From NCBI GenBank assembly GCA_009691445.1, contig SICL01000002.1, forward strand, positions 63 through 64,062: a DNA stretch of 64,000 nucleotides, given 5' to 3'. Of the stretch, positions 7,796 through 49,589 are shown piece after piece. This stretch comes from Candidatus Taenariivivens baikalensis. GTDB lineage: Bacteria > Omnitrophota > Omnitrophia > Omnitrophales > Aquincolibacteriaceae. The number at the start of each line of letters is the position of its first letter. Position 1 is the first letter of the stretch. The position numbers and the translations under genes were made by a program. The notes below the pieces were generated by a model. The model was not told the origin of the DNA. It was given only the letters and a program-made list of their open reading frames with translations, and ran no database searches.

Positions 7796-8212
7796 TTAAT
7801 ATTGAGTTTCGCAGCTTTTTTGAGGATCTTTCTTTGGCTTCGGGATCCAATAACTATCCGTGGGCTTTTTGAATTTAAAATCCAAAAACTCTTTCCCGGT
7901 TAAACGGGCAATCATAGCTATCGGTGTGATTCCTGAAAAGTAAAGTAGGCCCAGGACAGCAGGAGCAACGACTGCACCGAGAAGGAGGCCAAAGGCCATC
8001 CAGGCGATATAGATTTGTTTTAAAGATTTTGGAAGAAGCAGACCGAGTAAGACCAAAGGAACTCCGATGCCAAAGAAGACGGGAAAATGCGGTTTTCCAC
8101 GCCAAAGCATCAGGGCTCCAAGCGCCATAAAAATCCCACCGACCATCCAGCCGAAGGTTTTAAGTTCCTTCTCTCCGCTTTTAATCTGTTTGATTTCTTC
8201 AAGTAGTTTCAT
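7796..8212 (-). CDS. SxtJ-like membrane protein (carbamoyltransferase-associated)
   Basis: 138 aa with two to three hydrophobic segments. It sits immediately downstream of the carbamoyltransferase in the same orientation, as in sxtI-sxtJ-sxtK. Confidence 0.5.
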   Translation of the reverse strand: MKLLEEIKQIKSGEKELKTFGWMVGGIFMALGALMLWRGKPHFPVFFGIGVPLVLLGLLLPKSLKQIYIAWMAFGLLLGAVVAPAVLGLLYFSGITPIAMIARLTGKEFLDFKFKKPTDSYWIPKPKKDPQKSCETQY

Positions 8213-8214
8213 GA

Positions 8215-19261: not shown

Positions 19262-19741
19262 ACGGACATACTAGTTTTTTTTACCGGAACAATTGTTAAA
19301 AAACTTTTTGTCATATCCATTATCAATGAGATCATAACATAGGATGCCACGATACCCATGAGGGGTTCAAGAGAAAAAACTGTGATTTTCCGTCAAATCC
19401 GCTTGAAAGCAGGACCTTTTTTGAGGTCATTGGGATACGCTGGCGGACTATCAGAATGGACGCATAATTTCCCTTTACTTCCCCAAACCATAAATGTAGT
19501 CTTCCCTGTCAAAGTTGTGCGGAATTTGAGATTGCTCATGGGCGCATTTTTATGTATATTCTTGCTGAACCTATGAGGAAATATCGGGTTCATTCGCATT
19601 CTAAATCCCGCAAAAAAAATTCAGGGATGACACCACACAAAACTCAGTGACCCAAAAGCATTTATAGCGGCTCATGAAATCCATCTGGAAATAATCCAAA
19701 GCTTGTGTCCCGTCTAAAAACTTGAAATACGGATGTGAAAA
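19262..19741. promoter_or_regulatory. 480-bp divergent intergenic region (probable promoters for the minus operon ending at 19261 and the plus CDP-sugar operon starting at 19742)
   Basis: Largest non-coding gap in the window. It is flanked by divergent operon starts, is AT-rich, and contains degenerate copies of the GAGATTGC/GTCATTG repeat motifs (around 19420 and 19526). Confidence 0.45.
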
Positions 19742-20518
19742 ATGAAAGTAGTCATATTGGCAGGGGGCCGGGGTTCTAGGATCAGTGAAGAAACGGAAGT
19801 TCTGCCTAAACCCATGATTGAAATCGGCGGGAAGCCCATGATATGGCACATCATGAAATTGTATTCTTTTTATGGCTACAATGAATTTATTGTCTGCCTG
19901 GGATATCGAGGTTACATGCTGAAAGAATATTTTTCTCATTATTTTATGCATATGAGTGATGTGACTATCGATTTATCCAGGAATGAAACGAAAATTCACA
20001 CCACCACCTCGGAACCGTGGAAAATCACGCTCGTGGACACAGGTTTGGAGACAATGACAGGAAGTCGAATCAAACGCGTACAGAAGTATGTCGGAAATCA
20101 CCCGTTCCTTTTGACTTATGGCGATGGCTTGTCGGATGTCAATATTAAAAAGTTAGTCCAATTTCACAAAAAAAATAAAGGCCTCGCGACATTAACCGCG
20201 ATACAGACTGCGGGGAGATTTGGCATCGTAAGCATTGACCAGGGCTCTAAGGTTTCTTCTTTCCTGGAAAAACCTACGGGAGGTGACCGCTGGATTAACG
20301 GGGGCTTCTTTGTGCTTGAACCTGAAATTTTTGATTTTATAAAAAACAATGATACGGTGGTTTGGGAAAGTGAGCCTTTAGAGAATCTAGCAAAAAAAGG
20401 TAAATTGCGTGCCTATAAACACCCCGGATTTTGGGGCTGCATGGATACTTTGCGCGATAAAATAAATTTTGAGCGAATTTGGCAATCAGGAAACATTCCC
20501 TGGAAAGTGTGGCAATAG
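19742..20518 (+). CDS. rfbF: Glucose-1-phosphate cytidylyltransferase
   Basis: 258 aa. Starts MKVVILAGGRGSRISEETEVLPKPMIEIGGKPMIWHIMK and shows RfbF/DdhA-type similarity end to end. Confidence 0.92.
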   Translation: MKVVILAGGRGSRISEETEVLPKPMIEIGGKPMIWHIMKLYSFYGYNEFIVCLGYRGYMLKEYFSHYFMHMSDVTIDLSRNETKIHTTTSEPWKITLVDTGLETMTGSRIKRVQKYVGNHPFLLTYGDGLSDVNIKKLVQFHKKNKGLATLTAIQTAGRFGIVSIDQGSKVSSFLEKPTGGDRWINGGFFVLEPEIFDFIKNNDTVVWESEPLENLAKKGKLRAYKHPGFWGCMDTLRDKINFERIWQSGNIPWKVWQ

Positions 20519-20523
20519 TATCT

Positions 20524-21513
20524 ATGGATAAAAAATTCTGGAAGAATAAAAAAGTGCTCGTCACTGGTTTCGAAGGTTTCCTCGGTTCGAATTTGACTGG
20601 AAAGCTTATTTCTTTAGGAGCTGCTGTTTGGGGTCTCGATATAAAAGTGAGACGGAAAGAAACAATTCTTACTCCCAATGATTACAAGAGAATAAAAGTC
20701 ATTAAGGGAGATGTGGCTAATAGCCCACTCCTTAAAAAAATCATCCGAAAAAATAAGATACAAATTGTTTTTCATTTAGCCGCCGAAGCTCTGGTGGGCA
20801 AAGGTTATGATGCTCCCCTAAAAGCATTTAAATCCAATATCGCCGGAACCTGGAGCGTCCTTGAAGCTTGCCGTCTCGCGGAGAACTTGGAAGCGATCAT
20901 CGTTGCCTCAAGTGATAAGGCTTATGGGGCACACAAAAACTTACCCTACAAAGAAAATTTTTCGCTGAACGGATGTTATCCTTATGATGTTTCAAAAAGC
21001 TGTACTGATTTGCTGACGAACACGTATTTTCACACCTATGGGCTTCCGGTATCCATCACCCGTTGCGGGAATATATTTGGGCCCGGAGATTTTAATTTTA
21101 GCCGTCTTGTCCCCGATGCCGTCAGGTGCTTAATACGAAATAAAACATTGAAGATACGAAGCGATGGGACTTTTGTTCGTGATTATGTTTATGTTGAGGA
21201 CATCGTCGCGGGTTACATGAGGATTGCGGAACTTCTTAAGAAGAAAAATCTTTCGGGCGAAGCATTCAACTTCAGTTATGAAAAGCCCCTATCGGTAGTC
21301 CATTTATTAGAAGAGATCGATAAGCTTCATTTCTCCTCGCAGAAGTTAAACCGTCAAATCCTTAACAAGGCCAGGTATGAGATAAAAGAACAGTATCTTT
21401 CCGCGGCAAAAGCCAGACGTGTTTTGGGTTGGAAACCCGAATTCACTTTACGTAGCGGGCTGAAGAAAACAATCGCCTGGTTCTATCACAATAAAAAACT
21501 CCAACCGCAATAG
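20524..21513 (+). CDS. rfbG: CDP-glucose 4,6-dehydratase
   Basis: The start MDKKFWKNKKVLVTGFEGFLGSNL at 20524 is chosen to avoid overlap. It has the SDR Rossmann motif and YxxxK, matches RfbG/DdhB-type sequence, and follows rfbF. Confidence 0.85.
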   Translation: MDKKFWKNKKVLVTGFEGFLGSNLTGKLISLGAAVWGLDIKVRRKETILTPNDYKRIKVIKGDVANSPLLKKIIRKNKIQIVFHLAAEALVGKGYDAPLKAFKSNIAGTWSVLEACRLAENLEAIIVASSDKAYGAHKNLPYKENFSLNGCYPYDVSKSCTDLLTNTYFHTYGLPVSITRCGNIFGPGDFNFSRLVPDAVRCLIRNKTLKIRSDGTFVRDYVYVEDIVAGYMRIAELLKKKNLSGEAFNFSYEKPLSVVHLLEEIDKLHFSSQKLNRQILNKARYEIKEQYLSAAKARRVLGWKPEFTLRSGLKKTIAWFYHNKKLQPQ

Positions 21514-21514
21514 G

Positions 21515-22585
21515 ATGAATCTCTCAATGCGAAATCAAATTATTTGCGAGGACCTGGAGTTTATCGCAAAAGCGCCTATCCCCTGGAAAGATTTGGAGGG
21601 GAAGAATATACTTATCACTGGCGCAACTGGCTTCCTCCCCGCATATATGATCGAACTGCTATTATTTCTGAACGATAATTTTTTTCAAAAAAAAGTGCAA
21701 ATATTTGCATTAGCACGCAACAAAATGAAAGTTCTTGATCGATTCCAGAATTATGGGAAAAGACCCGACCTTAATTTTTTAATTCAAGATGTCTGCCTGC
21801 CCATCATCGACGAAGGAACAAGGTTTGATTTTGTGATTCACGCCGCAAGCCTAGCGAGTCCCAAGTTTTATGGCGTTGATCCCGTCGGGACTATTTTGGC
21901 CAACACCGTTGGGACAGCAAATCTTTTGGCTTTGGCTGAGAAACACAAGAGTGAGGCTTTTTTATTTTTCAGCAGCGCTGAAGTCTACGGAGATATAAGC
22001 TCCGATCGAATGCCCATCCGGGAGGATTGCTTTGGTCCTCTGGATCCCCTGCTTATTCGTTCCTGTTATGCTGAAGGTAAGCGGGCCGGAGAAAATATGT
22101 GTATTTCATGGAGCCAGCAATATGGACTCCCCGTGAAAATCATCCGCCCTTTTCATACTTATGGTCCTGGTATGAGTCTTGACGACGGAAGGGTTTTTGC
22201 CGATTTTGTTTCTGATATCGTCCACGGAAGGAATATCCAAATGACGAGCGATGGAAGTGCCGTACGAGCGTTTTGTTATCTCGCTGACGCAGTTGTGGGC
22301 TTTTTCATGGTTCTTCTAAAAGGAAGTCCTGCCCAGGCTTATAATATCGGAAACGATTTGTGTAAAACCAGCATTGTGGAACTTGCCGAGTTGCTGATCG
22401 GTATTTTTCCTGAAAAGCGTTTGAAGGTTGTTCCCAGTAAAGCTGTGAATTCTCCGGGATACATCAAGAGCAAAATTTCCGTAAGCGTTCCTGATACCTG
22501 CAAAATCAGGGCATTAGGGTGGAGCCCCTCATACTCATTAAAAGAAGGTTTTGCACGAACAATCAGGAGCTTTTCGGGTGAATAA
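21515..22585 (+). CDS. NAD(P)-dependent epimerase/dehydratase-family protein (extended SDR; CDP-sugar reductase/epimerase candidate)
   Basis: 356 aa. ILITGATGFLPAYMIE Rossmann motif and a YAEGKRAGE catalytic region. It sits between rfbG and rfbH, as in CDP-dideoxyhexose loci. Exact specificity not assignable. Confidence 0.6.
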   Translation: MNLSMRNQIICEDLEFIAKAPIPWKDLEGKNILITGATGFLPAYMIELLLFLNDNFFQKKVQIFALARNKMKVLDRFQNYGKRPDLNFLIQDVCLPIIDEGTRFDFVIHAASLASPKFYGVDPVGTILANTVGTANLLALAEKHKSEAFLFFSSAEVYGDISSDRMPIREDCFGPLDPLLIRSCYAEGKRAGENMCISWSQQYGLPVKIIRPFHTYGPGMSLDDGRVFADFVSDIVHGRNIQMTSDGSAVRAFCYLADAVVGFFMVLLKGSPAQAYNIGNDLCKTSIVELAELLIGIFPEKRLKVVPSKAVNSPGYIKSKISVSVPDTCKIRALGWSPSYSLKEGFARTIRSFSGE

Positions 22586-23504
22586 ACTGTCGCAGATTGA
22601 GAGTGCCTACCGAGCGGGGTCTCTTCCTAAAAAAACGTACATTAAAAAGATGCATGAACGCCATCTTCTTCTTTGGGAGCATTCGGAGTTCCTCCAGAAT
22701 AAAAATATTGAATCCATCATCATGGACCATCAACGCATCGTCGTCAGGACAAAAAGCGGGGTGCGCTTGATCTGCGATCCTCAAGACAAGCGGCACATGT
22801 TCATGGAGATTTTAAACTTCAATGACTATGAAGCCGCTGAACTCAAAATGATGAAACTCCTTTTGAAGAAAAACAGCATCATCCTTGATATTGGTGCCAA
22901 TGTTGGTTGGTATTCTATCCATCTTGCAAGGCAAGTTCCCCAAGGCAAGATCTTCGCTTTTGAACCCATTCCGCGAACTTATGATTTTTTAACAGAAAAT
23001 ATCGCATTAAACGGTCTGACCAATATCAAAACCTATAAGATTGGATTTTCCGACAAAGCCGGTTTTTTCAATTTTTACTATAATCGCGATTACCCAACCG
23101 CGACTTCGCTGAAAGATATTATGCAAGGAAATGATGTCGCTTTGGTAAAATGCCGCGTGGAAAGGCTGGATGATTTTTTAAAAAAACACCGTATTAAGCA
23201 TTTCGATTTCATTAAGTGTGACGTCGAAGGCGCCGAAAAGTTCGTGATCGAGGGTGGCTCACAAGCCATTGCGGAAAACAAGCCGATTATTTTTTTAGAA
23301 TTGCTCCGGAAGTGGTCTGCTAAGTTTAATTACCATCCCAATGACGTGATCAACGCTCTTGCCCACATCGGCTATGCCTGCTGCGAGATCGCTGAAACCA
23401 GGCTCCAACAGATCGAAAAAATCACCGATGCCACTGAATCGACCAATTTTTATTTTCTCCACAAAACCCACCACGCCAGTTTATTGAGAAAGTTCGCTCG
23501 ATAG
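22551..23504 (+). CDS. FkbM-family SAM-dependent methyltransferase
   Basis: LDIGANVGWYS and FAFEPIPRTYDFLTENIALNG motifs are typical of FkbM methyltransferases. The start is ambiguous: ATG 22551 (35-nt overlap), GTG 22578 or ATG 22650. Confidence 0.75.
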   Translation: MHEQSGAFRVNKLSQIESAYRAGSLPKKTYIKKMHERHLLLWEHSEFLQNKNIESIIMDHQRIVVRTKSGVRLICDPQDKRHMFMEILNFNDYEAAELKMMKLLLKKNSIILDIGANVGWYSIHLARQVPQGKIFAFEPIPRTYDFLTENIALNGLTNIKTYKIGFSDKAGFFNFYYNRDYPTATSLKDIMQGNDVALVKCRVERLDDFLKKHRIKHFDFIKCDVEGAEKFVIEGGSQAIAENKPIIFLELLRKWSAKFNYHPNDVINALAHIGYACCEIAETRLQQIEKITDATESTNFYFLHKTHHASLLRKFAR

Positions 23505-23506
23505 TT

Positions 23507-24889
23507 ATGGAAAAAGAAATCAGAAAAAAAATTCACTTACTAGTGAGATCTCTGATCAAGCGCCGACTTGCTAAACAGCGGTTTGTGCCTGGCACCTCCC
23601 CCGTCCATTATTCCGGGAGGGTTTATGATGAAAAAGAGGTGATAAATCTAGTCGACGCTTCATTGGATTTCTGGCTCACAGCGGGACGATTCGCCGAAGA
23701 ATTCGAACGAAAACTGGCGAAGTTTATCGGTGTACGCTTTTGCCTTCTGACCAACTCCGGATCCTCAGCAAATCTTTTGGCGCTATCCGCGCTTACTTCC
23801 CCTCTATTAAAAGAGAGACGGCTGAAACCCGGGGATGAGGTCATTACCACCGCGTGCGGTTTTCCCACCACACTCAATCCAATGCTACAAAACAATTTGA
23901 TCCCGGTTTTCGTTGATATAGACCTTAAAACCTACAATATTGATGCGAAAAAGATTGAGCGCGCGATAAGTAAAAAAACAAAAGCCATTTTTTTAGCGCA
24001 TACACTCGGCAATCCGGCCAACCTTCTGCTGATCAAAAAAATGGCGGAAAAATATCATTTGTGGGTGATTGAGGATAATTGTGACGCTTTGGGCGCTCAA
24101 TACTCGGGAAAACATACGGGCTCTTTCGGAGACATTGCCACGTTCAGCTTTTATCCTGCGCATCATATTACCATGGGGGAAGGTGGCGCCGTTGTGACCG
24201 ACAATCCTCAGTTGCGCAGGATCCTGCTTTCTTTCAGGGATTGGGGGCGGGATTGTTTTTGTGATCCGGGGAAGGACAATACCTGCGGAAGGAGATTTGG
24301 TCAAAAATTCGCCAAGCTACCCTTCGGATATGATCACAAATACGTCTATTCGCATATCGGCTATAACCTCAAGGCGACCGACATGCAAGCTTCGATCGGT
24401 GTCGCACAAATGGATAAGCTTCCCTCGTTCATAAAAATGCGACGCGAAAACTTTCAACGCCTCCGTGACCACCTTGACAAATACCGCCGTTTTTTCCATT
24501 TTGTTGAAGCGGCAGCTCATTCGCAGCCGAGTTGGTTTGGATTCCCCCTCTTAATCAAGAAATCAGCTCCTTTTTCCAGAGGAGAGATTGTTTCCTACTT
24601 GGAACAGCGAAAGATCGCCACGCGCATGCTTTTTGGCGGAAATTTAACGAAACAGCCCGCGTACAAGGATTCTAAATACCGCATTGCCGGCAGCTTGAAG
24701 AATACGGATTTAGTGATGAACGATTTGTTTTGGATAGGCGTCTATCCAGGCTTAGATTCCGATCAACTTTCCTATGTCCTTAGCGCTTTTGATGATTTTC
24801 TCAAGCAGTGCACTCAAAAGAAAAAAGACATCCATCGAGTGCCTGCCACTTCATCCAGTTGTCCTTGCGGGGAGGCCATAGGCCAATGA
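23507..24889 (+). CDS. rfbH: CDP-6-deoxy-D-xylo-4-hexulose 3-dehydrase (E1, PMP-dependent; RfbH/DdhC/AscC family)
   Basis: 460 aa in the DegT fold. The position that is the PLP lysine in DegT aminotransferases is His (YSHIGYNLKATD). It has the RfbH-specific DWGRDCFCDPGKDNTCGRRFG motif. Confidence 0.85.
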   Translation: MEKEIRKKIHLLVRSLIKRRLAKQRFVPGTSPVHYSGRVYDEKEVINLVDASLDFWLTAGRFAEEFERKLAKFIGVRFCLLTNSGSSANLLALSALTSPLLKERRLKPGDEVITTACGFPTTLNPMLQNNLIPVFVDIDLKTYNIDAKKIERAISKKTKAIFLAHTLGNPANLLLIKKMAEKYHLWVIEDNCDALGAQYSGKHTGSFGDIATFSFYPAHHITMGEGGAVVTDNPQLRRILLSFRDWGRDCFCDPGKDNTCGRRFGQKFAKLPFGYDHKYVYSHIGYNLKATDMQASIGVAQMDKLPSFIKMRRENFQRLRDHLDKYRRFFHFVEAAAHSQPSWFGFPLLIKKSAPFSRGEIVSYLEQRKIATRMLFGGNLTKQPAYKDSKYRIAGSLKNTDLVMNDLFWIGVYPGLDSDQLSYVLSAFDDFLKQCTQKKKDIHRVPATSSSCPCGEAIGQ

Positions 24890-25812
24890 ATCTCATCAGC
24901 GTGATTACCCCGTGCTACAACGAAGAAAAAAATGTTGAGGATCTTTATCTTCAAGTCAAAGCAGTGTTTCAGGGCCTCAAATATCAGTACGAGCATATTT
25001 TTATTGATAATGCTTCCACGGATGGGACCATCACCATCTTGAAACGACTTGCACAAGCCGATAATAATCTGAAGATCATTATCAACTCTAAAAATTTCGG
25101 ATGGGTACGCTCACCTTTTTATGGAATGCTGCAGGGGCACGGGGCTGCTGTGGTTTTATTAGCGTCGGATCTGCAAGATCCGCCGGGGCTCATCATCGAA
25201 TTCATAAAAAAGTGGGAAGAGGGTTATAAAATAGTCCTTGGAGTTAAAACCAAAAGTAAAGAACCCGCCCTGATTTACAAGGCAAGAAGTTTGTACTATG
25301 GGCTCTACAATAAACTCTCTGAAAATGAGATTGTGCGGCACAGTACGGGTTTTGGACTGTACGATAAGACCATCATAGAAATCTTCCGGCAGTTAAAGGA
25401 ACCCTACCCATTTCTAAAGAGCTTGATCCCTGAAATAGGTTTCAAGAAGGCAACGGTTGAATATATACAGGAAAAAAGGGAAAAAGGCATTTCATCGAGT
25501 AGTCTTTATCGACTCTATGACGTTGCAATTCATGGAATCATTAGCGATTCCAGGGTGCTTATCCGAGGCGCAACGCTGTTTGGATTTCTTGCGTCTGCCC
25601 TCAGTCTTTTAATCGCTATTGCGTATTTGATTTTAAAAATAACTTTGTGGGAAAGATTTCAATTGGGTATCGCCTCGGTGGCAATAGGCGTTTTCTTTTT
25701 CGCGTCCGTGCAGCTTTTTTTCATTGGAATCATTGGTGAATATGTCGGAGCAATCTATACGCATGTCAAAGACAGACCGCTTGTTATCGAAAAGGAAAGA
25801 ATAAATTTTTAG
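24886..25812 (+). CDS. Polyprenyl-phosphate glycosyltransferase (GT2, GtrB/ArnC/Dpm1-like, C-terminal TM pair)
   Basis: The start MNLISVITPCYNEEKNVEDL overlaps the rfbH stop (ATGA). It has the GT2 core plus two C-terminal TM helices, as in bactoprenol glucosyltransferase GtrB and ArnC. Confidence 0.8.
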   Translation: MNLISVITPCYNEEKNVEDLYLQVKAVFQGLKYQYEHIFIDNASTDGTITILKRLAQADNNLKIIINSKNFGWVRSPFYGMLQGHGAAVVLLASDLQDPPGLIIEFIKKWEEGYKIVLGVKTKSKEPALIYKARSLYYGLYNKLSENEIVRHSTGFGLYDKTIIEIFRQLKEPYPFLKSLIPEIGFKKATVEYIQEKREKGISSSSLYRLYDVAIHGIISDSRVLIRGATLFGFLASALSLLIAIAYLILKITLWERFQLGIASVAIGVFFFASVQLFFIGIIGEYVGAIYTHVKDRPLVIEKERINF

Positions 25813-25894
25813 CTGCCATCCAGCAAGAGTTGCATGAAACGGATCTGTCAGCCGGTTCGTAGGACACTTTCCAGAAAGTCGAGAAAATATTCAG

Positions 25895-26701
25895 ATGAAG
25901 AAAACGGACGATTTTGCCTTCCAGTTGAGGGAAATCATATTACGCCAATCGAAGCGAGCGAATGCGGGTCATATTGGCAGCTCCCTTTCAATCGCCGACT
26001 TGATCGCTGTACTTTATAGCGAAGTTCTTGGTCCCATTGGGCCTCGTCGCGAGCCTGATCGAGATCGTTTTGTGTTATCCAAGGGGCACGCGGCTCTCGC
26101 GCTCTATGGGGCACTCTATCTGAAGGGAGTTTTTGATCAATCCATTCTTGATACTTATTGCGCTGACGGTTCTCTTTTGGGAGTTCATCCTGAGCATGCT
26201 CTCGACGGAGTGGATTTTTGTACGGGTTCCCTTGGCATGGGATTTTCATTCGCGGTAGGGGCAGCGCTGGCCGCCAAGCTGTCAGGATCCAAACGGCGGA
26301 TTTTTGTTCTTCTCAGCGATGCTGAATGCAACGAAGGTGTGGTCTGGGAGGCCGCCCTTTTTGCCGCACATCACCGTCTTTCTAATCTGGTCGCAATATT
26401 GGATCTCAATGGCCAGCAAGCATTGGGTTATACCCGGGATGTCCTGGATCTCACCTCAATTTCTAAAAAATGGCAAGCCTTCGGATGGATCGCACGCGAT
26501 CTGGATGGACACGATCGAACTGAGATCGCCCGGGCGATTTCAGAACACAACTTTGCGTTAGGATCCCCTGCAATATTAATCGCAAAAACAATCTTCGGTA
26601 AAGGGGTTTCCTTCATGGAAAACCGTATTCCGTGGCATTACTTGTCGCTCAATGACGAACAGTACGCTGTTGCTTTGCGTGACATAGGCGTAGAGCCATG
26701 A
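25895..26701 (+). CDS. Transketolase, N-terminal (TPP-binding) subunit of a split transketolase
   Basis: 268 aa. Motifs GHIGSSLSIADL and GHAALALYGALYLKG. 4-bp overlap with the C-terminal subunit gene. Confidence 0.85.
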   Translation: MKKTDDFAFQLREIILRQSKRANAGHIGSSLSIADLIAVLYSEVLGPIGPRREPDRDRFVLSKGHAALALYGALYLKGVFDQSILDTYCADGSLLGVHPEHALDGVDFCTGSLGMGFSFAVGAALAAKLSGSKRRIFVLLSDAECNEGVVWEAALFAAHHRLSNLVAILDLNGQQALGYTRDVLDLTSISKKWQAFGWIARDLDGHDRTEIARAISEHNFALGSPAILIAKTIFGKGVSFMENRIPWHYLSLNDEQYAVALRDIGVEP

Positions 26702-27624
26702 GAAACGCATTTGCAAGCACGATACTGGATATTGCCCAGATGGAACCACGCGTCCTTCTCCTGACGGGAGATCTTGGATTCATGGTCCTGGAACCCTTTC
26801 AAAAACGTTATCCCGAGAGGTTTATTAATGTTGGCGTTTCTGAACAAAATCTTTTGGGTTTGGCGACTGGCTTGGCGGAGGCGGGTTGGATTCCTTACGT
26901 CTATTCGATTGCAAATTTTATAGCGCTTCGTCCGTACGAATTTATTCGCAACGGTCCGGTATTGCATCGTTTACCGGTTCGAATCGTTGGAATCGGAGAT
27001 GGATTTGATTACGGACATGCCGGCCCGACCCATTTGAGCATTGATGATGTGGGCGTGCTTCGAACGCTTCCGGGTATGGAGATCATTGCGCCGGCCACGC
27101 CCGGTCAAGCGCGTGAGGCATTGCTCAAGACTTATGCCTCGCAGGGTCCGATCTATTATCGTCTCGGGAAATCCGCGGGAGGAACATTGCCTCCGGTCGA
27201 ATTTCATTCAGGGAAAGTTGAATGGCTCCGCAACGGCAAAGATGTTGTTTTGCTGACCATGGGAGGTATTGCTGCCGAGGCTTTGAGCGCCGCTGCACAG
27301 CTGGAAGCCCTCGGAATTTCTGCGGCTGTTATCGCTGTCGCTCACATATCCCCGACTCCCCAAAATGCTCTTTTTGAGGTCTTGAAAAAATTTCCTCTGG
27401 CCGCCACGATTGAAGCTCATTCTGTTCAAGGCGGATTGGGCTCGATGGTTGCCGAAGTGATCGCTGAGGGACAAATGGTCTGCCGCCTGTTGCGCTTTGG
27501 CGTTAGGAAGCCGTTTGACGGTAGATCCGGTTCCCTTAAGTGGTTACTTCGCGAACATGGCCTGGATGCTGCATCTGTATCGAGCACTCTCCATAAAATG
27601 ATTAGAAATATTGGGGAACAATGA
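26698..27624 (+). CDS. Transketolase, C-terminal (pyrimidine-binding/transketolase C) subunit
   Basis: 308 aa. EQNLLGLATGLAEAGWIPYV plus a C-terminal transketolase-C domain. Overlaps the next gene start. Confidence 0.85.
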   Translation: MRNAFASTILDIAQMEPRVLLLTGDLGFMVLEPFQKRYPERFINVGVSEQNLLGLATGLAEAGWIPYVYSIANFIALRPYEFIRNGPVLHRLPVRIVGIGDGFDYGHAGPTHLSIDDVGVLRTLPGMEIIAPATPGQAREALLKTYASQGPIYYRLGKSAGGTLPPVEFHSGKVEWLRNGKDVVLLTMGGIAAEALSAAAQLEALGISAAVIAVAHISPTPQNALFEVLKKFPLAATIEAHSVQGGLGSMVAEVIAEGQMVCRLLRFGVRKPFDGRSGSLKWLLREHGLDAASVSSTLHKMIRNIGEQ

Positions 27625-29096
27625 AAACGATACTTTTTTATCTTTACCAGTATGTCAAGTTTGGCCCCTTGACAACCTATTTCCTCATGGCTGTAAGCAG
27701 TATCTTATTAGGAAAATATTTCTTGAAATTCAAATGGCCCTTTTCATCTCGAACGACTTTTTTCATGATCCTTGTGCTGGGGCTTGCGCTTCGGATCGGG
27801 TGGGTCTTTTATTCCGCGCACACGCCCATGAGCCATTGGAACGCTGAGCACATGCTTGAGAACGATAGGATCAATGTCCATGCCATAGAGTTAGTGGAAA
27901 AGAATCGCTGGTTTCTTGAGCCGGACGGACGCCCATCGGGACGCCGTCCGATTGGTTATCCACTTTTTTTAGCTGTTTTTTATAAGATCTTCGGGGTCCA
28001 TATCGGAGTTGCATGGGCAGTAAACCTTGGGCTTTTTTCCATTTCACTTTTTTTCCTGTACAAGCTGGCGGAGAAGATCTTTGGCGGCTCAGTAGCCTTG
28101 ATCACGGTTTTCTTATTTTCCATCTACCCCATGTCCATCTACAGCATTAAGCTCCTCACCGATGAGCATCTTTTCATTCCATTTTGGTATGGAGGGCTTT
28201 TTCTTCTTTTTGAGATCCTTCATGATCGCAAAGTCCGATGGGACTGGATTTGGCTTGGACTTATATTCGGTTATACAGCCATGATACGCACTCATGCGAT
28301 CTTTATGCCGCTGGTTGTTGGTATTGCTTTTTGGCTTTTAAAGCGTCCGTGGAGAGAAATAATCGGAAAGATCATCCTTGTGGCTATCGTCATGCAGGTT
28401 ATCAATCTGCCTTGGATAGTCCGAAATTACATCGCTTGGAAAGTTCCCATTCTTTATATCGCTTCGGGGGCTGGTGTTTACGCTCAAGTGAATTCAACAG
28501 CCAAACCCGAAGGGAATGGTCATGTTCCTGAAAAGGGTGACCCGGGTTATTCTCCGGAACTCGATCAGGCGATCGCCTCAGGCAATGAGGGTCTCATCCA
28601 TAAGATTTCAAACCGTGAGATGAAACGCTGGATATTGGAACACCCACAAGAGTTTTGGGTCATGGGTGTCAGCCGATTGCTTTATTTTATGAATTTCAAT
28701 CGCCAAGGGGGTGTCTGGGCCCTATGGCATCAATATTACCCCGGATCCTTCGATCCCAAACGCCCTTTGCCACCCAAGCTTCAGAAAATTCTGGAAGAAT
28801 ATGCGTTAGCCTTCTATTACATCGTTTTCTTTTCCTGGCTTTTCGCTATCGGTATTTTAATCAGTCGATGGCAAACATTAACACCCCTGACAAAAAATTG
28901 CCTGCTTGTTCTTGGAAGTTGTTTTTTGTTCTGGTTTGCCGAGCACATAATCATCTATCCGGACCGGAAGTATCGTTTTCCATTGGAACCTCTGATGCTG
29001 ATCACCACCGCTTTTTTCTTCTACAATCTTCATACGCCTAAATGGATCACCCCGCTACTGGCTTATTTAGCCCGGCTTAAAAAGACTAAATGCTGA
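27621..29096 (+). CDS. GT-C superfamily membrane glycosyltransferase (ArnT/PMT-like, GT39/GT83-type)
   Basis: 491 aa with about 11 TM helices. ArnT-like N-terminal loop (RRPIGYPLFLAVFYKIFG) and C-terminal hydrophilic region. It sits downstream of the GtrB-like gene. Confidence 0.7.
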   Translation: MKTILFYLYQYVKFGPLTTYFLMAVSSILLGKYFLKFKWPFSSRTTFFMILVLGLALRIGWVFYSAHTPMSHWNAEHMLENDRINVHAIELVEKNRWFLEPDGRPSGRRPIGYPLFLAVFYKIFGVHIGVAWAVNLGLFSISLFFLYKLAEKIFGGSVALITVFLFSIYPMSIYSIKLLTDEHLFIPFWYGGLFLLFEILHDRKVRWDWIWLGLIFGYTAMIRTHAIFMPLVVGIAFWLLKRPWREIIGKIILVAIVMQVINLPWIVRNYIAWKVPILYIASGAGVYAQVNSTAKPEGNGHVPEKGDPGYSPELDQAIASGNEGLIHKISNREMKRWILEHPQEFWVMGVSRLLYFMNFNRQGGVWALWHQYYPGSFDPKRPLPPKLQKILEEYALAFYYIVFFSWLFAIGILISRWQTLTPLTKNCLLVLGSCFLFWFAEHIIIYPDRKYRFPLEPLMLITTAFFFYNLHTPKWITPLLAYLARLKKTKC

Positions 29097-29149
29097 GAAT
29101 CTCAAAATACGCCCGTGTTGTCTTAATGGCCTCTTAAAAATAAACAAGT
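29097..29149. terminator. Convergent intergenic region between the plus GT-C gene and the minus GT-C gene (probable bidirectional termination zone)
   Basis: 53-bp AT-rich gap between convergent stops. No strong hairpin verified by eye. Confidence 0.3.
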
Positions 29150-31069
29150 TCAAACAATATGAAAAATGTAAAAGGTTTTTCCGGCCTTAGCAATAGATTT
29201 CATTTCTTTAAATTGTGAAAGGGGAAAGTTGCGCTGTGCGATCATGGCATCAATATCAAGCGCATAATATCCAGGCTGGGGCTGGAGCCAGTCCTCTTCA
29301 CCCATTGCCTCCCACTGAAGGTGATGAAAGGTATAGGCTTCTGGGTTGATAAATTTTGAAGCAATCTTGATCCGGGACACCTGATGTTCCGAGGCCCAAA
29401 GCGCCAGGTGCTTGTTGTCCTGGCCCCAATTCAGATTGGAGTCCGTAGTCAGTCTGGCCCCGTCCTCGACCTCTTTGACTCCTTCATTGAAGTAGGAAAG
29501 GTGATGGGGAAGATTGCTGAGAGACTGATGGACAAAGTGGATCAGTATAAATACCCCCACCCCTGCCGTTGCTTTCTGGAGAAAGATAGATTTTAGGGAA
29601 GCGACCCATTTCCCGACATAGCCTGCGATGACAAAAATAAAGGGGTAGATGGGAAGGATGTGACGGAGGCCAATTTTAACGTGACTGGCAAGGCTTGAGA
29701 CCGCTAAGAAAAATAAGGGCGGCCACAGAAGCATAAGCTTCACCTTCCAGGAGTATCCCTTCTCTTTCAGGAATAAAAACATTCCCATCCCGAAACAAAA
29801 AAGTGTTGTCCATGGAGTCTTAATTAAAAGAAGCCCTAAAAAGTATTTCCAATCACAGGTGATGAATGATCCGGAAACGCACATTTGGTGATTCATTTGT
29901 GTATTGGGGACTCCAATATGGAGCGATTCAAGGTAATGTTGGAAAGGCTTAAGCCGCAATAAAGTTGAGGGAAAGTCACGGTATGAGAAGATGAGGACCC
30001 AAGAAGCCACGACACACAATAAGGCAAAACATTGCGCAAAAAATAACGGTTTCGGCCCAGCCCGCAGAATCAGCCCCATGAGAAGGACAAAGATAAACAC
30101 ATTCCAGCCTGTAAACACCAAAGCCAATAGCCCCATCCCCTTTTTTGCAATCAAAAGGATCGAAACAAATGAGACCATAAAACCTGCGGCAGACAAAGCG
30201 ATTAAGAGCCACCGGGAAAGGTTCTTCTTTAGCAAAAACAGGATCAGGGCAGAACTAGTGACTGGAACCAAAAAACACAGGATGGACTTTTGCCCTAAGG
30301 ACAGGACGAAGAGAATTCCCGCAAGAAGCAACAGACCCGTCTCCGCATTTTTTGAGAGGTGGCAGGCATCGGATTCTTGTTTTCCATGGAACGGCTGCAG
30401 GATAAAGAGAAAAAGCAGGGTAGGAAGAACCAGAAGGCCGCTCATTTTTGAAAGCAAAGTCAGCCCCGTGAAGAAACCCGCAAGGAGCACATCGGGAATC
30501 CGCAATGTGATAAAAAATCGGTTCGTAAAATAGAGGGCGATGAAAAAGAAAGCGGCAATTCCGAGGTCTGTGGTAAAAAGACTTCCATGGGCGATCATAT
30601 TGGGGCAAAAGGCGATGAGAGTCAGTGAGAGCAATCCCCCGCCCCAACCAAAAAGTTCCTTGGACCATTTGAAAACAAAGAATGCCAGGAGAAGGGTGAC
30701 GAGGATAATAGGAATCCTTGAAAGAAAGAGAATCTGGTACGGATCGTTTCCCATGAGATAAAGAAATTTAAGTCCGGTCTTGGACACATCGATTTCATTC
30801 GAGTTTGGAAGATAGACAGGATTCTGGATGGGAAAACGGGGCTGAATCCATAAAAGGGGCAATGCCCCGAGCTGTGGCATAAGCGGCGGATGGGCTGTAC
30901 GGCTCCGGTAATCCGCATATCGGATTCCTGCGTAGCCCGTGGTGTAATAAAAAGGTTCATCCGAAGTTTGCCCGTTGTTCCATGCGAAATAGACGCATTG
31001 AACCGCAAGGACGCTCAAAAGTAATGCCGGAAAAATAAATTTTAAGGGTGCCGATAAAGAGCGGGGCAT
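29150..31069 (-). CDS. GT-C superfamily membrane glycosyltransferase (PMT/ArnT-like) with a large C-terminal periplasmic domain
   Basis: The likely start is MPRSLSAPLKFIFPALLL at 31069 (the ORF-track start at 31159 overlaps the upstream gene). It has a DE motif in the first loop (TSDEPFYYTTGYA), multiple TM helices, and an ~200-aa soluble C-terminal domain. Confidence 0.7.
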   Translation of the reverse strand: MPRSLSAPLKFIFPALLLSVLAVQCVYFAWNNGQTSDEPFYYTTGYAGIRYADYRSRTAHPPLMPQLGALPLLWIQPRFPIQNPVYLPNSNEIDVSKTGLKFLYLMGNDPYQILFLSRIPIILVTLLLAFFVFKWSKELFGWGGGLLSLTLIAFCPNMIAHGSLFTTDLGIAAFFFIALYFTNRFFITLRIPDVLLAGFFTGLTLLSKMSGLLVLPTLLFLFILQPFHGKQESDACHLSKNAETGLLLLAGILFVLSLGQKSILCFLVPVTSSALILFLLKKNLSRWLLIALSAAGFMVSFVSILLIAKKGMGLLALVFTGWNVFIFVLLMGLILRAGPKPLFFAQCFALLCVVASWVLIFSYRDFPSTLLRLKPFQHYLESLHIGVPNTQMNHQMCVSGSFITCDWKYFLGLLLIKTPWTTLFCFGMGMFLFLKEKGYSWKVKLMLLWPPLFFLAVSSLASHVKIGLRHILPIYPFIFVIAGYVGKWVASLKSIFLQKATAGVGVFILIHFVHQSLSNLPHHLSYFNEGVKEVEDGARLTTDSNLNWGQDNKHLALWASEHQVSRIKIASKFINPEAYTFHHLQWEAMGEEDWLQPQPGYYALDIDAMIAQRNFPLSQFKEMKSIAKAGKTFYIFHIV

Positions 31070-31073
31070 AAAT

Positions 31074-32147
31074 TCAGGATGACGGATCAAGGGGCTTAAG
31101 CATGACGGTTCGAAATATTTTTTGGGGGGCCTTCGAGGACCAGTGGGAGTCATCCGCATAATAGATATCCTTTTCCCCGCGGGCTAGCTCGGCAAGAAGA
31201 ATTTCTTTTGTGTCGATGAATGTGTAGGATTTTTTCAAAGTGCGTAGAGTTTCAAAAAAATGACTGTGCGGATAGGGGTTATGAAGGATGAAATCGCTGT
31301 AAAGGTTATATTTATCCACCACGGGCATAAAATAAAGTCGGATCCCCTTTTGATTTAATTTTTCCGCTAACGCGTTCAGGTTTCTATTCGCTTTTTGGAT
31401 TGAGGTTTCACTTTCCCCCGCCAAGTGCTCAATATCTTCGTAAGCAAAAATGAGTTTCCTTCCGTTTTTTACTGTAAAAAAAGGTCGGCTTAGCTCGCGC
31501 GTGTAAACTTTCGAAAAGAAAGCGTCGTCTTTAATCATGTATAAAAAATGGTAGAGAAGAAATTTTAAATTCCCGATATTCAGAAAAGAAATCTCAGGCG
31601 GTCGGTTGGTGTATTTCAGTTTTTGATAAGTCTTCAGAATATCTCCAAGAGGAAGGTGTTGGTCCATATCGACCGGTTTAGAAAGAAAGTCAGCGGCGTG
31701 GTGCTCAATGATTTCTAAAATAATGGCTTTGGGATGCACCTGATCCAGATAGCCGCTGTTGGCGAGAATAACAAGGGTATCAAAAAAATGTTTTCCGGGA
31801 AGCTTCTGAACATTCAGGACGGTTTTACTGTGAATCGTTGCAATCCAGTCTTGGTAATATTGATCGGTCTTGCCGTTGCTATTCGAAAATGAATCCCCAA
31901 TCGTTAGAATATCAATGGGCTCGTGCTGGTATTGATAATTTTCAAGATGTTTCCGCTGTAAACCGTACCCGGGTTTTGACGGGTAGCTTGATCCGGCAAT
32001 ATAACCGATCCGGGTATAATCGCCGCTGCGTGGGCCGTCGATTAAAAGTTCTTTTGTGTATTTTTCCCAAATCAAAAAATTGAGCGCAACAAAGCTCAAA
32101 AAAAATCCCAGTACACTCAATGTCCAGAACTTGTGAGTTTTCATCAA
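31074..32147 (-). CDS. AlgJ/AlgX-like SGNH-hydrolase-fold O-acyltransferase partner (signal-anchored)
   Basis: 357 aa with an N-terminal TM. Block I GDSF (TIGDSFSNSNG) and C-terminal DDSHW (DxxH) motifs. It lies directly downstream of an MBOAT. Confidence 0.7.
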   Translation of the reverse strand: MMKTHKFWTLSVLGFFLSFVALNFLIWEKYTKELLIDGPRSGDYTRIGYIAGSSYPSKPGYGLQRKHLENYQYQHEPIDILTIGDSFSNSNGKTDQYYQDWIATIHSKTVLNVQKLPGKHFFDTLVILANSGYLDQVHPKAIILEIIEHHAADFLSKPVDMDQHLPLGDILKTYQKLKYTNRPPEISFLNIGNLKFLLYHFLYMIKDDAFFSKVYTRELSRPFFTVKNGRKLIFAYEDIEHLAGESETSIQKANRNLNALAEKLNQKGIRLYFMPVVDKYNLYSDFILHNPYPHSHFFETLRTLKKSYTFIDTKEILLAELARGEKDIYYADDSHWSSKAPQKIFRTVMLKPLDPSS

Positions 32148-32151
32148 GGGC

Positions 32152-33567
32152 CTAAAAGTTGAAATAAATGAATTCGCTGACTTTGGTAATGCTGATGATT
32201 CCTGCGCAAGCGAGAAACGTACACAGAGCCGCTGTTTTCCAACTAGGTTGAAACGTTGAACGCATTAGGGAGGAATTTTTTAATATCAAAACTGCTGCGG
32301 TGAGACCCAATACGGTGGGGATTTGTGTTCTAAAATCCGCGGAAATTCCAAAGCCGTTACAGCCGGCCATTCCCCGAAGGATATGGACAGCATCTTCCCA
32401 GGTTTTTGCCCGAAAAAAAACCCAAGCTGCATTGACAAAGTTAAAGGTAAGAAACCACGCAAGGAAGCGATTCATTTTGATTCCAAATCCGCCCCAGATC
32501 CGGTGAATGACCATGGCCAATCCGTGAAGTGCTCCCCAAAAGACAAAGGTCCAGCTTGCCCCGTGCCAGAGTCCGCCCAGCAAAAAGGTGACCATTAGAT
32601 TGACCACTGTCCGCCATTCTCCGTGCTGATTTCCTCCCAAAGGAATATAAATATAATCGCGCAGGAATCGGGAAAGTGTGATGTGCCAACGGCGCCAGAA
32701 ATCCTGGATAGTCGTAGCCTGGTAGGGCGAGTCAAAGTTAATGGGAAGCTGGATATTAAACAGAAGCGCAGAACCAATCGCCATATCGATATAGCCGCTG
32801 AAGTCAAAATAGAGTTGAAGGCTGTAGGAGAGCGAAATCATCCAGGCTTCGCCAAAAGTGAGAAGGCTCGAATGATCAAATCCCTGATTAGCCCAGACGG
32901 CCACGGTATCTGCAATCAAAACCTTTTTACAAAGACCAATCGAAAAAATAAACAGACCTGCAGAAATATTTTTATAATTGAGAACTTTATTTTTAATTCG
33001 ATCAAACTGGGGCATTAAATCTTTATGATGAAGGATCGGGCCTGCAATCAAGTGCGGAAAAAAAGTAACAAAAAGTCCGTAATTGAGAAAATCGTACTCC
33101 TGGCACTCTTCCCGGTAACTATCGACCAAAAAAGCGATTTGAGTAAAGGTAAAAAAACTGATTCCGAGAGGTAAAGCAATGTGAAGAAGTGGTAGATTCA
33201 AGCCCGCAGCCCATCGGATATTGGAGATGAAAAAATCCGTGTACTTATAATAACCCAGGAGAAGCAAATTGGCGGTTACGCCAAAACACAAAATACCCTT
33301 GCGGGATGTTCGCCTCGGCCGTATCGGGATTCCCTCCGACGATTTCTTCCCTGATTTAATGAGAGCCGTTCCTACCGCATAGTTAAAGACAATGGAGATT
33401 AAAATAAGGGGCAAATAGGCGGCGTTCCAATAAGCATAAAAAAATAACGAACATAAAACCAGCCAGGCTTTCGCGGCTTGAAGCAGACGTTTGTGGGTTA
33501 GAAAAAAATAAATGCCAAACGATGCAGGGAGGGAAAAAAAGATATAGACATAGGAATTAAATAGCAC
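32152..33567 (-). CDS. Membrane-bound O-acyltransferase (MBOAT), AlgI-like, second copy
   Basis: 471 aa. FWRRWHITLSRFLRDYIYIPLGGN...GGLWHGASW. It is a paralog of the ORF at 12925-14301 (shared MLFNS... N-terminus). Confidence 0.9.
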   Translation of the reverse strand: MLFNSYVYIFFSLPASFGIYFFLTHKRLLQAAKAWLVLCSLFFYAYWNAAYLPLILISIVFNYAVGTALIKSGKKSSEGIPIRPRRTSRKGILCFGVTANLLLLGYYKYTDFFISNIRWAAGLNLPLLHIALPLGISFFTFTQIAFLVDSYREECQEYDFLNYGLFVTFFPHLIAGPILHHKDLMPQFDRIKNKVLNYKNISAGLFIFSIGLCKKVLIADTVAVWANQGFDHSSLLTFGEAWMISLSYSLQLYFDFSGYIDMAIGSALLFNIQLPINFDSPYQATTIQDFWRRWHITLSRFLRDYIYIPLGGNQHGEWRTVVNLMVTFLLGGLWHGASWTFVFWGALHGLAMVIHRIWGGFGIKMNRFLAWFLTFNFVNAAWVFFRAKTWEDAVHILRGMAGCNGFGISADFRTQIPTVLGLTAAVLILKNSSLMRSTFQPSWKTAALCTFLACAGIISITKVSEFIYFNF

Positions 33568-41833: not shown

Positions 41834-41834
41834 T

Positions 41835-43481: not shown

Positions 43482-43482
43482 T

Positions 43483-44532: not shown

Positions 44533-44533
44533 G

Positions 44534-45352: not shown

Positions 45353-45354
45353 GG

Positions 45355-49586: not shown

Positions 49587-49589
49587 CGA

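Follow-up and report, generated by a model that had tools for sequence, protein, structure and literature searches.

Introduction

YerE, an enzyme of yersiniose synthesis, uses thiamine diphosphate (ThDP) to add an activated aldehyde to C-4 of CDP-4-keto-3,6-dideoxy-D-glucose (PMC12247030). Here we describe a two-subunit, or split, transketolase (TK)-like enzyme encoded on a 64,000-nucleotide stretch of Candidatus Taenariivivens baikalensis (Omnitrophota; assembly GCA_009691445.1, contig SICL01000002.1, positions 63 to 64,062), referred to below as the window, for which a reaction of the same type is proposed. Like the YerE-like lyases of yersiniose, erwiniose and caryophyllose synthesis, the enzyme is encoded in a cell-surface glycan locus, and its surroundings resemble in part the YerE pathway, in which RfbF, RfbG and the dehydrase E1 act before the branching step and a reductase acts after it (PMC12247030). 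The enzymes themselves differ. YerE is a single chain of the decarboxylase/acetolactate-synthase type that takes 2-oxo-acid donors, whereas the window enzyme, known here from its sequence, is of the transketolase type, consists of two subunits and keeps the transketolase histidines for a dihydroxyethyl unit.

Split transketolases from the miharamycin and amipurimycin clusters have been proposed, without proof, to add a hydroxyacetyl group to a keto sugar (PMC12247030). A 2025 review, which cites Krug et al. (2024) for split transketolases in 13 Streptomyces biosynthetic gene clusters, presents sugar branching by transketolases as unproven proposals from these clusters and attributes the branching of envelope sugars to the YerE family (PMC12247030). 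These enzymes share with ours the two subunits, the location in sugar-tailoring clusters and the proposed transfer of hydroxyacetyl to a keto sugar; going by their description, they are set apart in being confined to Streptomyces secondary-metabolite clusters, whereas the clade described here is found in envelope-glycan operons of many phyla. Our search of the literature found no characterised transketolase in an O-antigen, CDP-glucose or polyprenyl context, and no many-phyla transketolase clade in envelope-glycan operons with fusions to a short-chain dehydrogenase/reductase (SDR) and a diagnostic signature. The idea of a sugar-branching transketolase is therefore known, from the Streptomyces proposals only, and what appears to be new is a sharply defined clade of transketolase-like enzymes in the envelope-glycan operons of many phyla.

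Two further groups of systems are relevant. Rif15, QncN/L, DesAB, SqwGH and the apulose-4-phosphate transketolase illustrate how readily split transketolases are recruited to new substrates; they differ in that none is known to act on nucleotide sugars and in their settings, which are polyketide or nonribosomal peptide synthetase (NRPS) clusters, steroid side-chain cleavage and sulfosugar catabolism. The GtrA/GtrB/GtrC, ArnC/ArnT and PgfS/PgfM systems resemble the operon of the window in combining a family 2 glycosyltransferase (GT2) that has C-terminal transmembrane (TM) helices with a GT-C transferase. They differ in handling common sugars (Glc, Ara4N, GlcNAc), in place of the CDP-activated, transketolase-modified dideoxyhexose proposed here.

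Family membership and substrate pocket

The first-pass annotation of this DNA had recognised a two-subunit transketolase at 25895-27624, and this is borne out by two adjacent open reading frames (ORFs) on the forward strand with transketolase Pfam domains. PF00456, PF02779 and PF02780 all score above their gathering cut-offs, giving the domain set of the transketolase superfamily, while the Pfam search found none of the decarboxylase-type TPP_enzyme N, M or C domains in the pair. The nearest solved structure is that of the split transketolase of Carboxydothermus hydrogenoformans (6yak/6yaj; 230 and 196 bits, E values of 2e-67 and 5e-57), an enzyme that has been reconstituted and is active (PMC7661550). 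The two enzymes have the two-chain architecture in common, are about 42% identical and share all ThDP and catalytic residues. Against the NF004559 transketolase equivalog the N subunit scores 246.5 bits and the C subunit 152 bits for a cut-off of 488, and against TIGR00232 the scores are 132 and 27.5 bits for a cut-off of 682.

The window enzyme was aligned to E. coli TktA and to the C. hydrogenoformans enzyme to compare individual residues. The residues kept are, by their E. coli numbers, D155 and N185, which are ligands of the cofactor, E411, which activates it, the catalytic histidines H26, H66, H100, H261 and H473, and R358; the N subunit retains H26, H65, H98, D142, N172 and H248, and the C subunit retains R2 (E. 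coli R358), E49 (E411) and H112 (H473). Structural work on the yeast and E. coli enzymes has established that the substrate phosphate is bound by R358, S385, H461 and R520 of the E. coli enzyme (yeast R359, S386, H469 and R528), and in the window R358 alone of this set is kept, S385 being replaced by M29, H461 by G100 and R520 by K158 of the C subunit. The aspartate that binds the C2-OH of the acceptor, D469 (yeast D477), is replaced by A108. The cofactor motif G154-D155-G156 reads S141-D142-A143 in the N subunit, in which Q174, A176 and Y249 are residues specific to the clade described below. According to the alignment the C. hydrogenoformans enzyme retains every canonical pocket residue, and thus differs from the window enzyme in having GDG and the equivalents of S385, H461, D469 and R520 where the latter has SDA, M, G, A and K. 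Judged by these residues, the window enzyme would not be a pentose-phosphate transketolase. With glycine in place of H461 and a residue that is smaller or neutral in place of D469, the pocket for the acceptor would be larger, and R358 and the lysine at the R520 position would still be available for a diphosphate. The channel for the substrate runs at the interface of the two subunits.

A clade spread over many phyla

Relatives of the N subunit at about 60-65% identity number in the thousands, and all have the motifs SDAECNEG and WHY. A scan with one genome per species gave 576 loci. Among the best 80 of the 576, which were those used, the clade is found in Cyanobacteria/Melainabacteria, Chloroflexota, Acidobacteriota, Verrucomicrobiota, Actinomycetota (Solirubrobacterales), Omnitrophota, Gemmatimonadota, Deltaproteobacteria and others; Bacillota, in the form of Paenibacillus, also carry it, and the 82 clade loci together span about 10 phyla. 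Carriers of the transketolase genes include the strains Paenibacillus cellulosilyticus KACC 14175, Conexibacter stalactiti KCTC 39840 and Spirulina sp. CCY15215, and the complete genomes OZ241917.1 and OY969117.1. In a neighbour-joining tree a long branch parts the clade from the C. hydrogenoformans enzyme, and the window groups with one Methylacidiphilum and one Riflebacteria locus. Its two subunits are ordinary members of the clade, at about 60% (N) and 50% (C) identity.

Residues were counted in 72 concatenated N and C sequences. S141, Q174, A176 and Y249 of the N subunit are present in all 72 and A143 in 68, and the Asp and Asn that bind ThDP/Mg as well as the activating Glu are kept in every one. 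In the C subunit glycine occupies the H461 position in 72/72 and lysine the R520 position in 71/72, while the D469 position, Asn in 34, Ala in 29 and Asp in 3, is other than Asp in 69/72. All four transketolase-type histidines that contact the donor, including the equivalents of E. coli H66 and H100, are invariant. The family signature is thus S-D-A, Gly at the H461 position, Lys at the R520 position and WHY. A third split-transketolase signature, GDGLQHS in the N subunit and R-S-Y-T-H-R in the C subunit, with H461 replaced by Tyr and D469 by Thr, was seen at three loci (L127, L128 and L164); these have no glycan partners and may be another neofunctionalised group.

Gene neighbourhoods of the clade

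Neighbouring genes were clustered de novo and their occurrence then set by tblastn; ORF calling at the loci was crude, and many loci are incomplete. A conserved extended SDR of the nucleotide-sugar type is present in 62/82 clade loci and a GT2 in 72/82 (37 long, 35 short). Where the H461 position is Gly, a GT2 and/or an extended SDR lies within 8 kb in 81/85 loci, as against 0/20 where it is His, as in canonical split transketolases (Fisher p = 7e-18, with loci counted without phylogenetic correction). About 55 metagenome loci, with split transketolases 42-47% identical to that of the window and the canonical signature (GDG, ...HG, R-S-H-D-H-R), served as a control. Read by eye, the neighbours of the canonical split enzymes are housekeeping genes (L25/Ctc, thymidylate kinase, PlsY, hibernation factor). 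The suggestion that this is a sugar-pathway enzyme and not a housekeeping transketolase is therefore supported both by the altered pocket and by the glycan synteny, and synteny with pentose-phosphate genes in relatives, named beforehand as an observation that would speak against it, was looked for and not seen, the relatives showing linkage to SDR and GT2 genes instead. RfbF or RfbH homologues occur in at most 3/82 clade loci. The conserved partners of the family are thus the extended SDR and the GT2, and not the genes for CDP-3,6-dideoxy sugars.

Genes for modifying hydroxyl or keto groups recur beside the transketolase, namely methyltransferases, sulfotransferase-like, kinase-like and aminotransferase genes and ketoreductase-like SDRs, the last being related to GDP-4-keto-6-deoxymannose reductases. 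Two types of operon recur in the set L007-L086 and L089-L105. One has the order TKN (the N subunit), TKC (the C subunit), short GT2, DUF4915/TIGR03032, sulfotransferase-like and SDR, and the other TKN, TKC, GtrB-type GT2, Zn-ribbon methyltransferase, methyltransferase and SDR. Neither has a nucleotidyltransferase of its own, and NCBIfam offers no names for the recurrent partner families. In the cyanobacterial loci L008, L010 and L014 (Spirulina among them) the order is rearranged, with TKC upstream followed by GT2, DUF4915, sulfotransferase-like, coiled-coil protein, SDR and TKN, after which come a lipoprotein-like gene and membrane proteins.

Assignment of the window to the second type ("type B", TKN-TKC-GT2-MT-MT-SDR, MT being a methyltransferase) was considered and rejected. 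The GT2 and SDRs of the window reach only 24-31% identity to those of the module, where the corresponding proteins match the module representative at 50-67%, and the window has none of the methyltransferase, DUF4915 and sulfotransferase-like genes of the modules. The window therefore joins a transketolase of the clade to a different sugar pathway, the CDP-3,6-dideoxyhexose route. A metagenome scan for the rfbH-GT2-TK-GT-C arrangement found no closer relative (at most 67-77% identity, on short contigs), so that conservation of this exact operon is not shown. Annotated plasmids held no clade member above 40% identity and yielded the Paenibacillus locus described below; the hits on Streptomyces plasmids lay in an NRPS setting or in unannotated DNA. 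Of 10 large membrane proteins near the transketolase modules, two matched PMT_2 in Pfam (one weakly, below the cut-off) and five were unmatched, the others being DUF6056, DUF6077 and MurJ; with so mixed a result a general partnership with GT-C transferases is not established.

A B12-binding radical SAM protein is encoded in the window (57618-59756, reverse strand), and a B12-radical-SAM family also recurs near the transketolase modules of L029, L036, L046, L062, L070 and L078. Radical SAM genes likewise adjoin a split transketolase in C. fetus (PMC5013579). The recurrence hints at a further C-modification step. A non-sugar setting for a split transketolase was met on plasmid pSPA1 of Streptomyces parvulus (L169, 27218-30371), where a DegT aminotransferase, TKN and TKC form a trio in an NRPS cluster with ArgB/ArgC-like and RimK-like genes.

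CDP-hexose contexts and fusions to an SDR

Besides the window, four loci place a variant transketolase in a CDP-hexose or 4,6-dehydratase setting, three of them with rfbF. On a megaplasmid of Paenibacillus cellulosilyticus a glycosyltransferase, a GT2-methyltransferase, rfbF, rfbG and an NDP-hexose C-methyltransferase are followed by a 635-residue protein in which an SDR is fused to the transketolase N subunit (SDR::TK-N), then by TK-C, a TylF-type O-methyltransferase and further glycosyltransferases. The accessions of this transketolase pair are WP_110042955.1 and WP_110042956.1. Locus L088 has a methyltransferase, RfbF, a CDP-glucose 4,6-dehydratase (VITSDKCYEN), a 591-residue SDR::TK-N, TK-C and a GT2. 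Its RfbF is 46% and its GT2 43% identical to those of the window, the GT2s having their C-terminal motif in common; the transketolase part of the fusion is 49% identical to the window N subunit and the SDR part 35% identical to the module SDR. At L153 RfbF (54% identical to that of the window) is followed by a dehydratase-like SDR, a sulfotransferase-like gene, an APH-like kinase, TKN, TKC, an SDR, GtrA and a GT2 (about 43%), and the GtrA between SDR and GT2 adds to the resemblance to the three-component systems. At L110 the order is 4,6-dehydratase, TKN, TKC, DegT aminotransferase and methyltransferase. All four enzymes have Gly at the H461 position. The D469 position is Gln in Paenibacillus and L088 and Leu in L153 and L110, and the R520 position is Lys in Paenibacillus, L088 and L110 and Arg in L153.

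At least 10 Paenibacillus lineages carry an SDR::TK-N fusion, as do distant sequences from metagenomes. A group of proteins of about 700-750 residues (P0144-P0177) has an extended SDR fused instead to an NDP-hexose C-methyltransferase domain (PF08484), which parallels SDR::TK-N in placing another class of 4-keto-sugar-branching enzyme on the same type of SDR. A different fusion, of a PhyH dioxygenase to TK-N, is encoded on a JGI contig (3300056388; P0137) directly after HldE-like, GmhA-like and SDR genes and is followed by TK-C; this locus looks like a heptose-nucleotide version of the same theme.

The operon in the window

The whole 64-kb window, as read from its scanned ORFs, is a glycan-biosynthesis island. 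The genes around the transketolase are collected in Table 1. The Pfam scan covered ORFs of at least 120 residues, minus a few small ones overlapping larger genes, plus one of 116 residues.

Table 1. Genes of the transketolase operon and the genes that follow it. Positions are those of the window.
Feature	Positions	Strand	Details
RfbF, glucose-1-phosphate cytidylyltransferase (makes CDP-glucose)	19742..20518	+	NCBIfam TIGR02623 equivalog, 400.9 bits against a cut-off of 300
CDP-glucose 4,6-dehydratase-like extended SDR	20479..21513	+	probable start ATG 20524
Second extended SDR, UDP-glucuronate-decarboxylase-like	21515..22585	+	PDB 2b69/4gll UXS1, 146 bits, E 1e-41
FkbM-family SAM methyltransferase	22551..23504	+	Pfam Methyltransf_21 4.7e-19; TIGR01444 110 bits against a cut-off of 37.7
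RfbH/E1, CDP-6-deoxy-L-threo-D-glycero-4-hexulose 3-dehydrase (C-3 deoxygenation)	23507..24889	+	NF011936 equivalog, 712 bits against 423
GtrB/ArnC/PgfS-type GT2, polyprenyl-phosphate sugar transferase	24808..25812	+	Pfam Glycos_transf_2; probable start ATG 24886
TK-like N subunit (ThDP diphosphate-binding PP domain)	25895..26701	+	268 aa; Pfam PF00456 7.7e-39
TK-like C subunit (Pyr and TKC domains)	26698..27624	+	308 aa; PF02779 1.7e-28, PF02780 1.3e-18
GT-C fold glycosyltransferase (PMT_2/ArnT-like)	27621..29096	+	Pfam PMT_2 1.8e-13; at least 7 predicted TM segments
Second PMT_2/GT-C membrane protein, convergent	29150..31159	-	Pfam PMT_2 6.9e-11; 11 predicted TM segments
AlgX-like SGNH protein and MBOAT O-acyltransferase pair	31074..33567	-	Pfam ALGX 3.9e-8, MBOAT 1.5e-38

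ATGA overlaps join TKN to TKC and TKC to the GT-C gene (27621-27624), and another joins the rfbH stop to the probable GT2 start at ATG 24886. From this arrangement the transketolase pair is predicted to be translationally coupled to the GT-C transferase and to lie in one operon with RfbF, the dehydratase-like SDR, E1 and the GT2. The CDP-3,6-dideoxyhexose/GtrB-like/GT-C context named in the first-pass annotation is confirmed, as RfbF and E1 pass their equivalog cut-offs, the GT2 has the motif IGEYVGAIY and two C-terminal TM segments, which mark the GtrB/ArnC/PgfS type, and a PMT_2 gene adjoins. Against the PgfS and ArnC models the GT2 scores 175 and 106 bits, each under its cut-off. The operon thus holds both a Gtr/Arn-type polyprenyl-phosphate GT2 with C-terminal TM helices and a GT-C transferase. 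E1 shows the hallmark SFYPAHH, in which His replaces the pyridoxal phosphate-binding Lys, and Cys192, Cys250, Cys252 and Cys260 in the [2Fe-2S] spacing of E1 (C-X57-C-X1-C-X7-C).

The supply of CDP-4-keto-3,6-dideoxyglucose within the locus is less complete. The dehydratase-like SDR has the Asp-Lys type active-site motif SSDKAYG and matches the CDP-glucose 4,6-dehydratase structures 1wvg and 1rkx at 132-134 bits, and its top NCBIfam match, TIGR02622, falls below the cut-off (221 bits against 278). No ORF scanned against Pfam matched the family of the reductase E3, and no FNR or 2Fe-2S reductase of the size of E3 was found among them. The first-pass annotation had noted the lack of E3, which holds for the scanned ORFs, and had suggested that the 4-keto-3,6-dideoxy intermediate might be diverted to other chemistry as a result, which was mistaken. 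As the reductase on which E1 depends for producing the 4-keto-3,6-dideoxy sugar, E3 takes part in forming this sugar and does not consume it; its absence cannot divert the intermediate, and implies instead that the electron donor is encoded elsewhere. A small Rieske [2Fe-2S] protein of 147 residues at the edge of the island (62626-63069, reverse strand) is a conceivable electron carrier for E1 without E3.

In the second SDR the motifs SSAEVYG and YAEGK are conserved, as is the Arg of "VRAF". Its identity to the SDR shared by related transketolase modules is no more than about 24%, and it is a tentative candidate for the ketoreductase of the branched sugar. No terminal CDP-4-keto-3,6-dideoxyhexose 4-reductase of the RfbS/RfbJ type was matched at equivalog level, this UXS-like protein being the sole spare SDR. 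No scanned ORF matched GtrA_DPMS_TM, as would a GtrA/ArnEF-type flippase, and none matched the Pfam families of pentose-phosphate enzymes. The MBOAT of the window clusters with MBOATs adjoining the transketolase modules of L004, L013, L022 and L051, and in the Melainabacteria loci L013 and L022 these MBOATs accompany a large polytopic membrane protein that is GT-C-like by eye alone.

The 2-kb bin with the transketolase genes has a GC content of 49.8%, against about 44.5% nearby. Recent horizontal acquisition of the pair was considered and rejected, as its GC3 of 0.476 equals that of the neighbouring genes; the excess therefore comes from the first two codon positions and is a matter of protein composition. 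In a scan of 19000-29400 for promoters and terminators the counts were not above the shuffled expectation.

Proposed reaction and alternatives

With the domain identity, the remodelled pocket, the SDR fusions, the coupling within the operon and, across the clade, the linkage to nucleotide-sugar genes all observed, the transketolase pair is very probably an enzyme of a nucleotide-sugar pathway. More specifically, it may be a carboligase like YerE in function and not homologous to it, adding a two-carbon (C2) ketol unit to C-4 of a CDP-4-keto-3,6-dideoxyhexose, to which we assign a probability of about 0.5. It would be an alpha2beta2 ThDP enzyme of the transketolase superfamily recruited from sugar-phosphate metabolism to the tailoring of nucleotide sugars. 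In the pathway that we infer, down to the acceptor, the donor, the position of attack and every later step, RfbF, the 4,6-dehydratase-like SDR and E1 would produce CDP-4-keto-3,6-dideoxy-D-glucose with the help of an electron donor encoded outside the window. Hydroxypyruvate or a ketose would then give up a two-carbon dihydroxyethyl (ketol) unit to the ThDP of the transketolase-like enzyme, and the dihydroxyethyl carbanion would add to the C-4 carbonyl to give a 4-C-(hydroxyacetyl) branch at a tertiary alcohol, a yersiniose-like branch with one extra hydroxyl. Next, the ketone of the side chain may be reduced by an SDR and a hydroxyl capped by the FkbM methyltransferase, after which the GtrB-type GT2 would place the finished sugar on polyprenyl phosphate and, following flipping, the coupled GT-C would transfer it to the envelope glycan.

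Transfer of a ketol unit to a keto sugar, which the first-pass annotation had raised as a possibility, is the reading best backed by the comparative evidence; it is favoured by the altered pocket, the linkage to SDR and GT2 genes, the recurrence beside rfbF and a dehydratase, and the SDR::TK-N fusions. Having no C-3 hydroxyl, the E1 product can only be the acceptor of a transketolase and never the donor, and retention of the histidines that contact the donor C1-OH favours dihydroxyethyl as the unit transferred. Generalised to the clade, this would describe a phylum-spanning family of transketolase-type ThDP carboligases that equip nucleotide-activated 4-keto sugars, destined for envelope glycans, with tertiary-alcohol branches derived from glycolaldehyde, a proposal that we make more tentatively.

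Several points weigh against these proposals. To our knowledge no sugar with such a branch comes from these organisms. The window lacks orthologues of the SDR, GT2 and methyltransferases usual in the clade, its own versions being so divergent, and in most clade members the acceptor is not a CDP-3,6-dideoxy sugar because RfbF and RfbH are so rarely encoded at their loci. The second SDR, being UDP-glucuronate-decarboxylase-like, may belong to a different, keto-pentose route, and neither a GtrA-type flippase nor an E3-type donor was matched among the scanned ORFs. With the phosphate-binding residues lost, the usual ketose-phosphate donors would also be bound less well. The association statistics take no account of shared ancestry, ORF calling at the loci was crude, and the tree was built by neighbour joining only. 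Finally, no transketolase has been shown to accept a ketone or a nucleotide sugar, the Streptomyces proposals being likewise unproven (PMC12247030).

The chemically closest alternative is a different donor. With pyruvate, as in DXS or YerE, the enzyme would form an acetyl or 1-hydroxyethyl branch and so replace YerE, non-homologously, in making yersiniose. The substrate of YerE is exactly the E1 product (PMC12247030), the C subunit scores 118 bits against DXS TIGR00204, near its score for the transketolase equivalog, and DXS structures rank second in its PDB search. The N subunit, however, matches transketolase far better than DXS, and the four invariant histidines of the clade include the H66 and H100 equivalents that bind the donor C1-OH, so an acetyl donor seems unlikely. 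Rather more doubtful is transfer of a glycolyl (C2 acyl) unit to an oxygen or nitrogen of the sugar or its carrier, with no C-C branch. Such non-canonical transfers are known from the two-component transketolases of secondary metabolism, Rif15 reportedly carrying out glycolyl transfer for rifamycin L and QncN/L reportedly making glycolyl-acyl carrier protein (ACP), and aminotransferases adjoin the transketolase in L110 and S. parvulus; yet neither the window nor the conserved modules encode a lipoyl/E2-like or ACP partner, and the recurrent partners of the enzyme are the keto-sugar-making 4,6-dehydratase and the fused SDR. An enzyme acting in the direction of cleavage, to remove C2 from or rearrange a nucleotide- or polyprenyl-phosphate-linked keto sugar, would accord with the reversibility of transketolase reactions, with the cleavage of alpha-hydroxyketones by transketolase-like desmolases and with the want of an obvious dedicated keto-sugar maker in most clade loci. 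It is improbable, as the E1 product in the window has no alpha-hydroxyl, which donor-type cleavage requires, and the ring of pyranose 4-keto sugars would be opened.

The remaining alternatives concern sugar phosphates. The first-pass annotation had also entertained the supply of an unusual phospho-sugar precursor, which for this island could be sedoheptulose-7-phosphate for heptose, or a pentose phosphate. A GT9 heptosyltransferase-like gene is present in the island and the related transketolase P0137 adjoins heptose genes, but throughout the clade three of the four phosphate-binding residues and the aspartate for the C2-OH are replaced, the operon contains no sugar-phosphate isomerase or kinase gene, and at other loci the N subunit is fused to a nucleotide-sugar SDR; this makes such a role quite improbable. 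As for an ordinary pentose-phosphate transketolase lying in a glycan island by chance, some bacteria and archaea do have a split enzyme as their housekeeping transketolase (PMC7661550). The window subunits nevertheless miss the equivalog cut-off of 488 (246 and 152 bits), their pocket is altered, and the contrast in glycan-gene synteny with canonical split enzymes (81/85 loci against 0/20) would be hard to reconcile with chance. The clade is present moreover in cyanobacteria, for example Spirulina sp. CCY15215 (L008), and cyanobacteria need a canonical transketolase for the Calvin cycle. An ordinary role is accordingly highly improbable.

Implications

If addition of a ketol unit to a nucleotide-activated keto sugar is correct, the clade would represent a second, non-homologous solution to the YerE reaction, and branched sugars so far chemically undescribed would be delivered through polyprenyl-phosphate carriers in many lineages. 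Undiscovered branched sugars are accordingly predicted in the envelopes of bacteria that have been little studied. Few ThDP enzymes attack ketones to give chiral tertiary alcohols, and such enzymes are wanted as biocatalysts. The SDR::TK fusions beside rfbF and rfbG in culturable Paenibacillus make keto-sugar branching by a transketolase directly testable, and their presumed substrate, CDP-4-keto-6-deoxyglucose, is easy to make. In reconstructions from metagenome-assembled genomes, genes annotated as transketolase that carry the clade signature should not be counted as pentose-phosphate capacity.

Other gene sets of the island

Three further groups of genes, all on the reverse strand, were noted in the window. 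At 47148-57263 lies a nonulosonic-acid (legionaminic/pseudaminic-like) set, comprising NeuB, a PIG-L deacetylase, a formyltransferase, a UDP-GlcNAc 2-epimerase-type hydrolase, a DegT aminotransferase and a 4,6-dehydratase-type SDR, together with a CBS-NTP-transferase, a PglD-like acetyltransferase, a CMP-sugar synthetase-like protein, a GFO/IDH/MocA protein and a classical SDR. The run at 38521-45981 contains a CTP_transf_3 cytidylyltransferase, an HpcH/HpaI aldolase, a HAD phosphatase, an LdpA-like 4Fe-4S protein and a 563-residue HMGL-like protein, and ends with an ORF without a family match and a HisF/HisH-like cyclase-amidotransferase pair; these genes may serve to make an acid sugar or substituent of an unusual, activated kind. 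At 7796-10032 a carbamoyltransferase (Carbam_trans_N/C) is followed by a small SxtJ-like protein, with GT9, GT4 and Wzy_C genes adjoining, which suggests an O-carbamoylated glycan.

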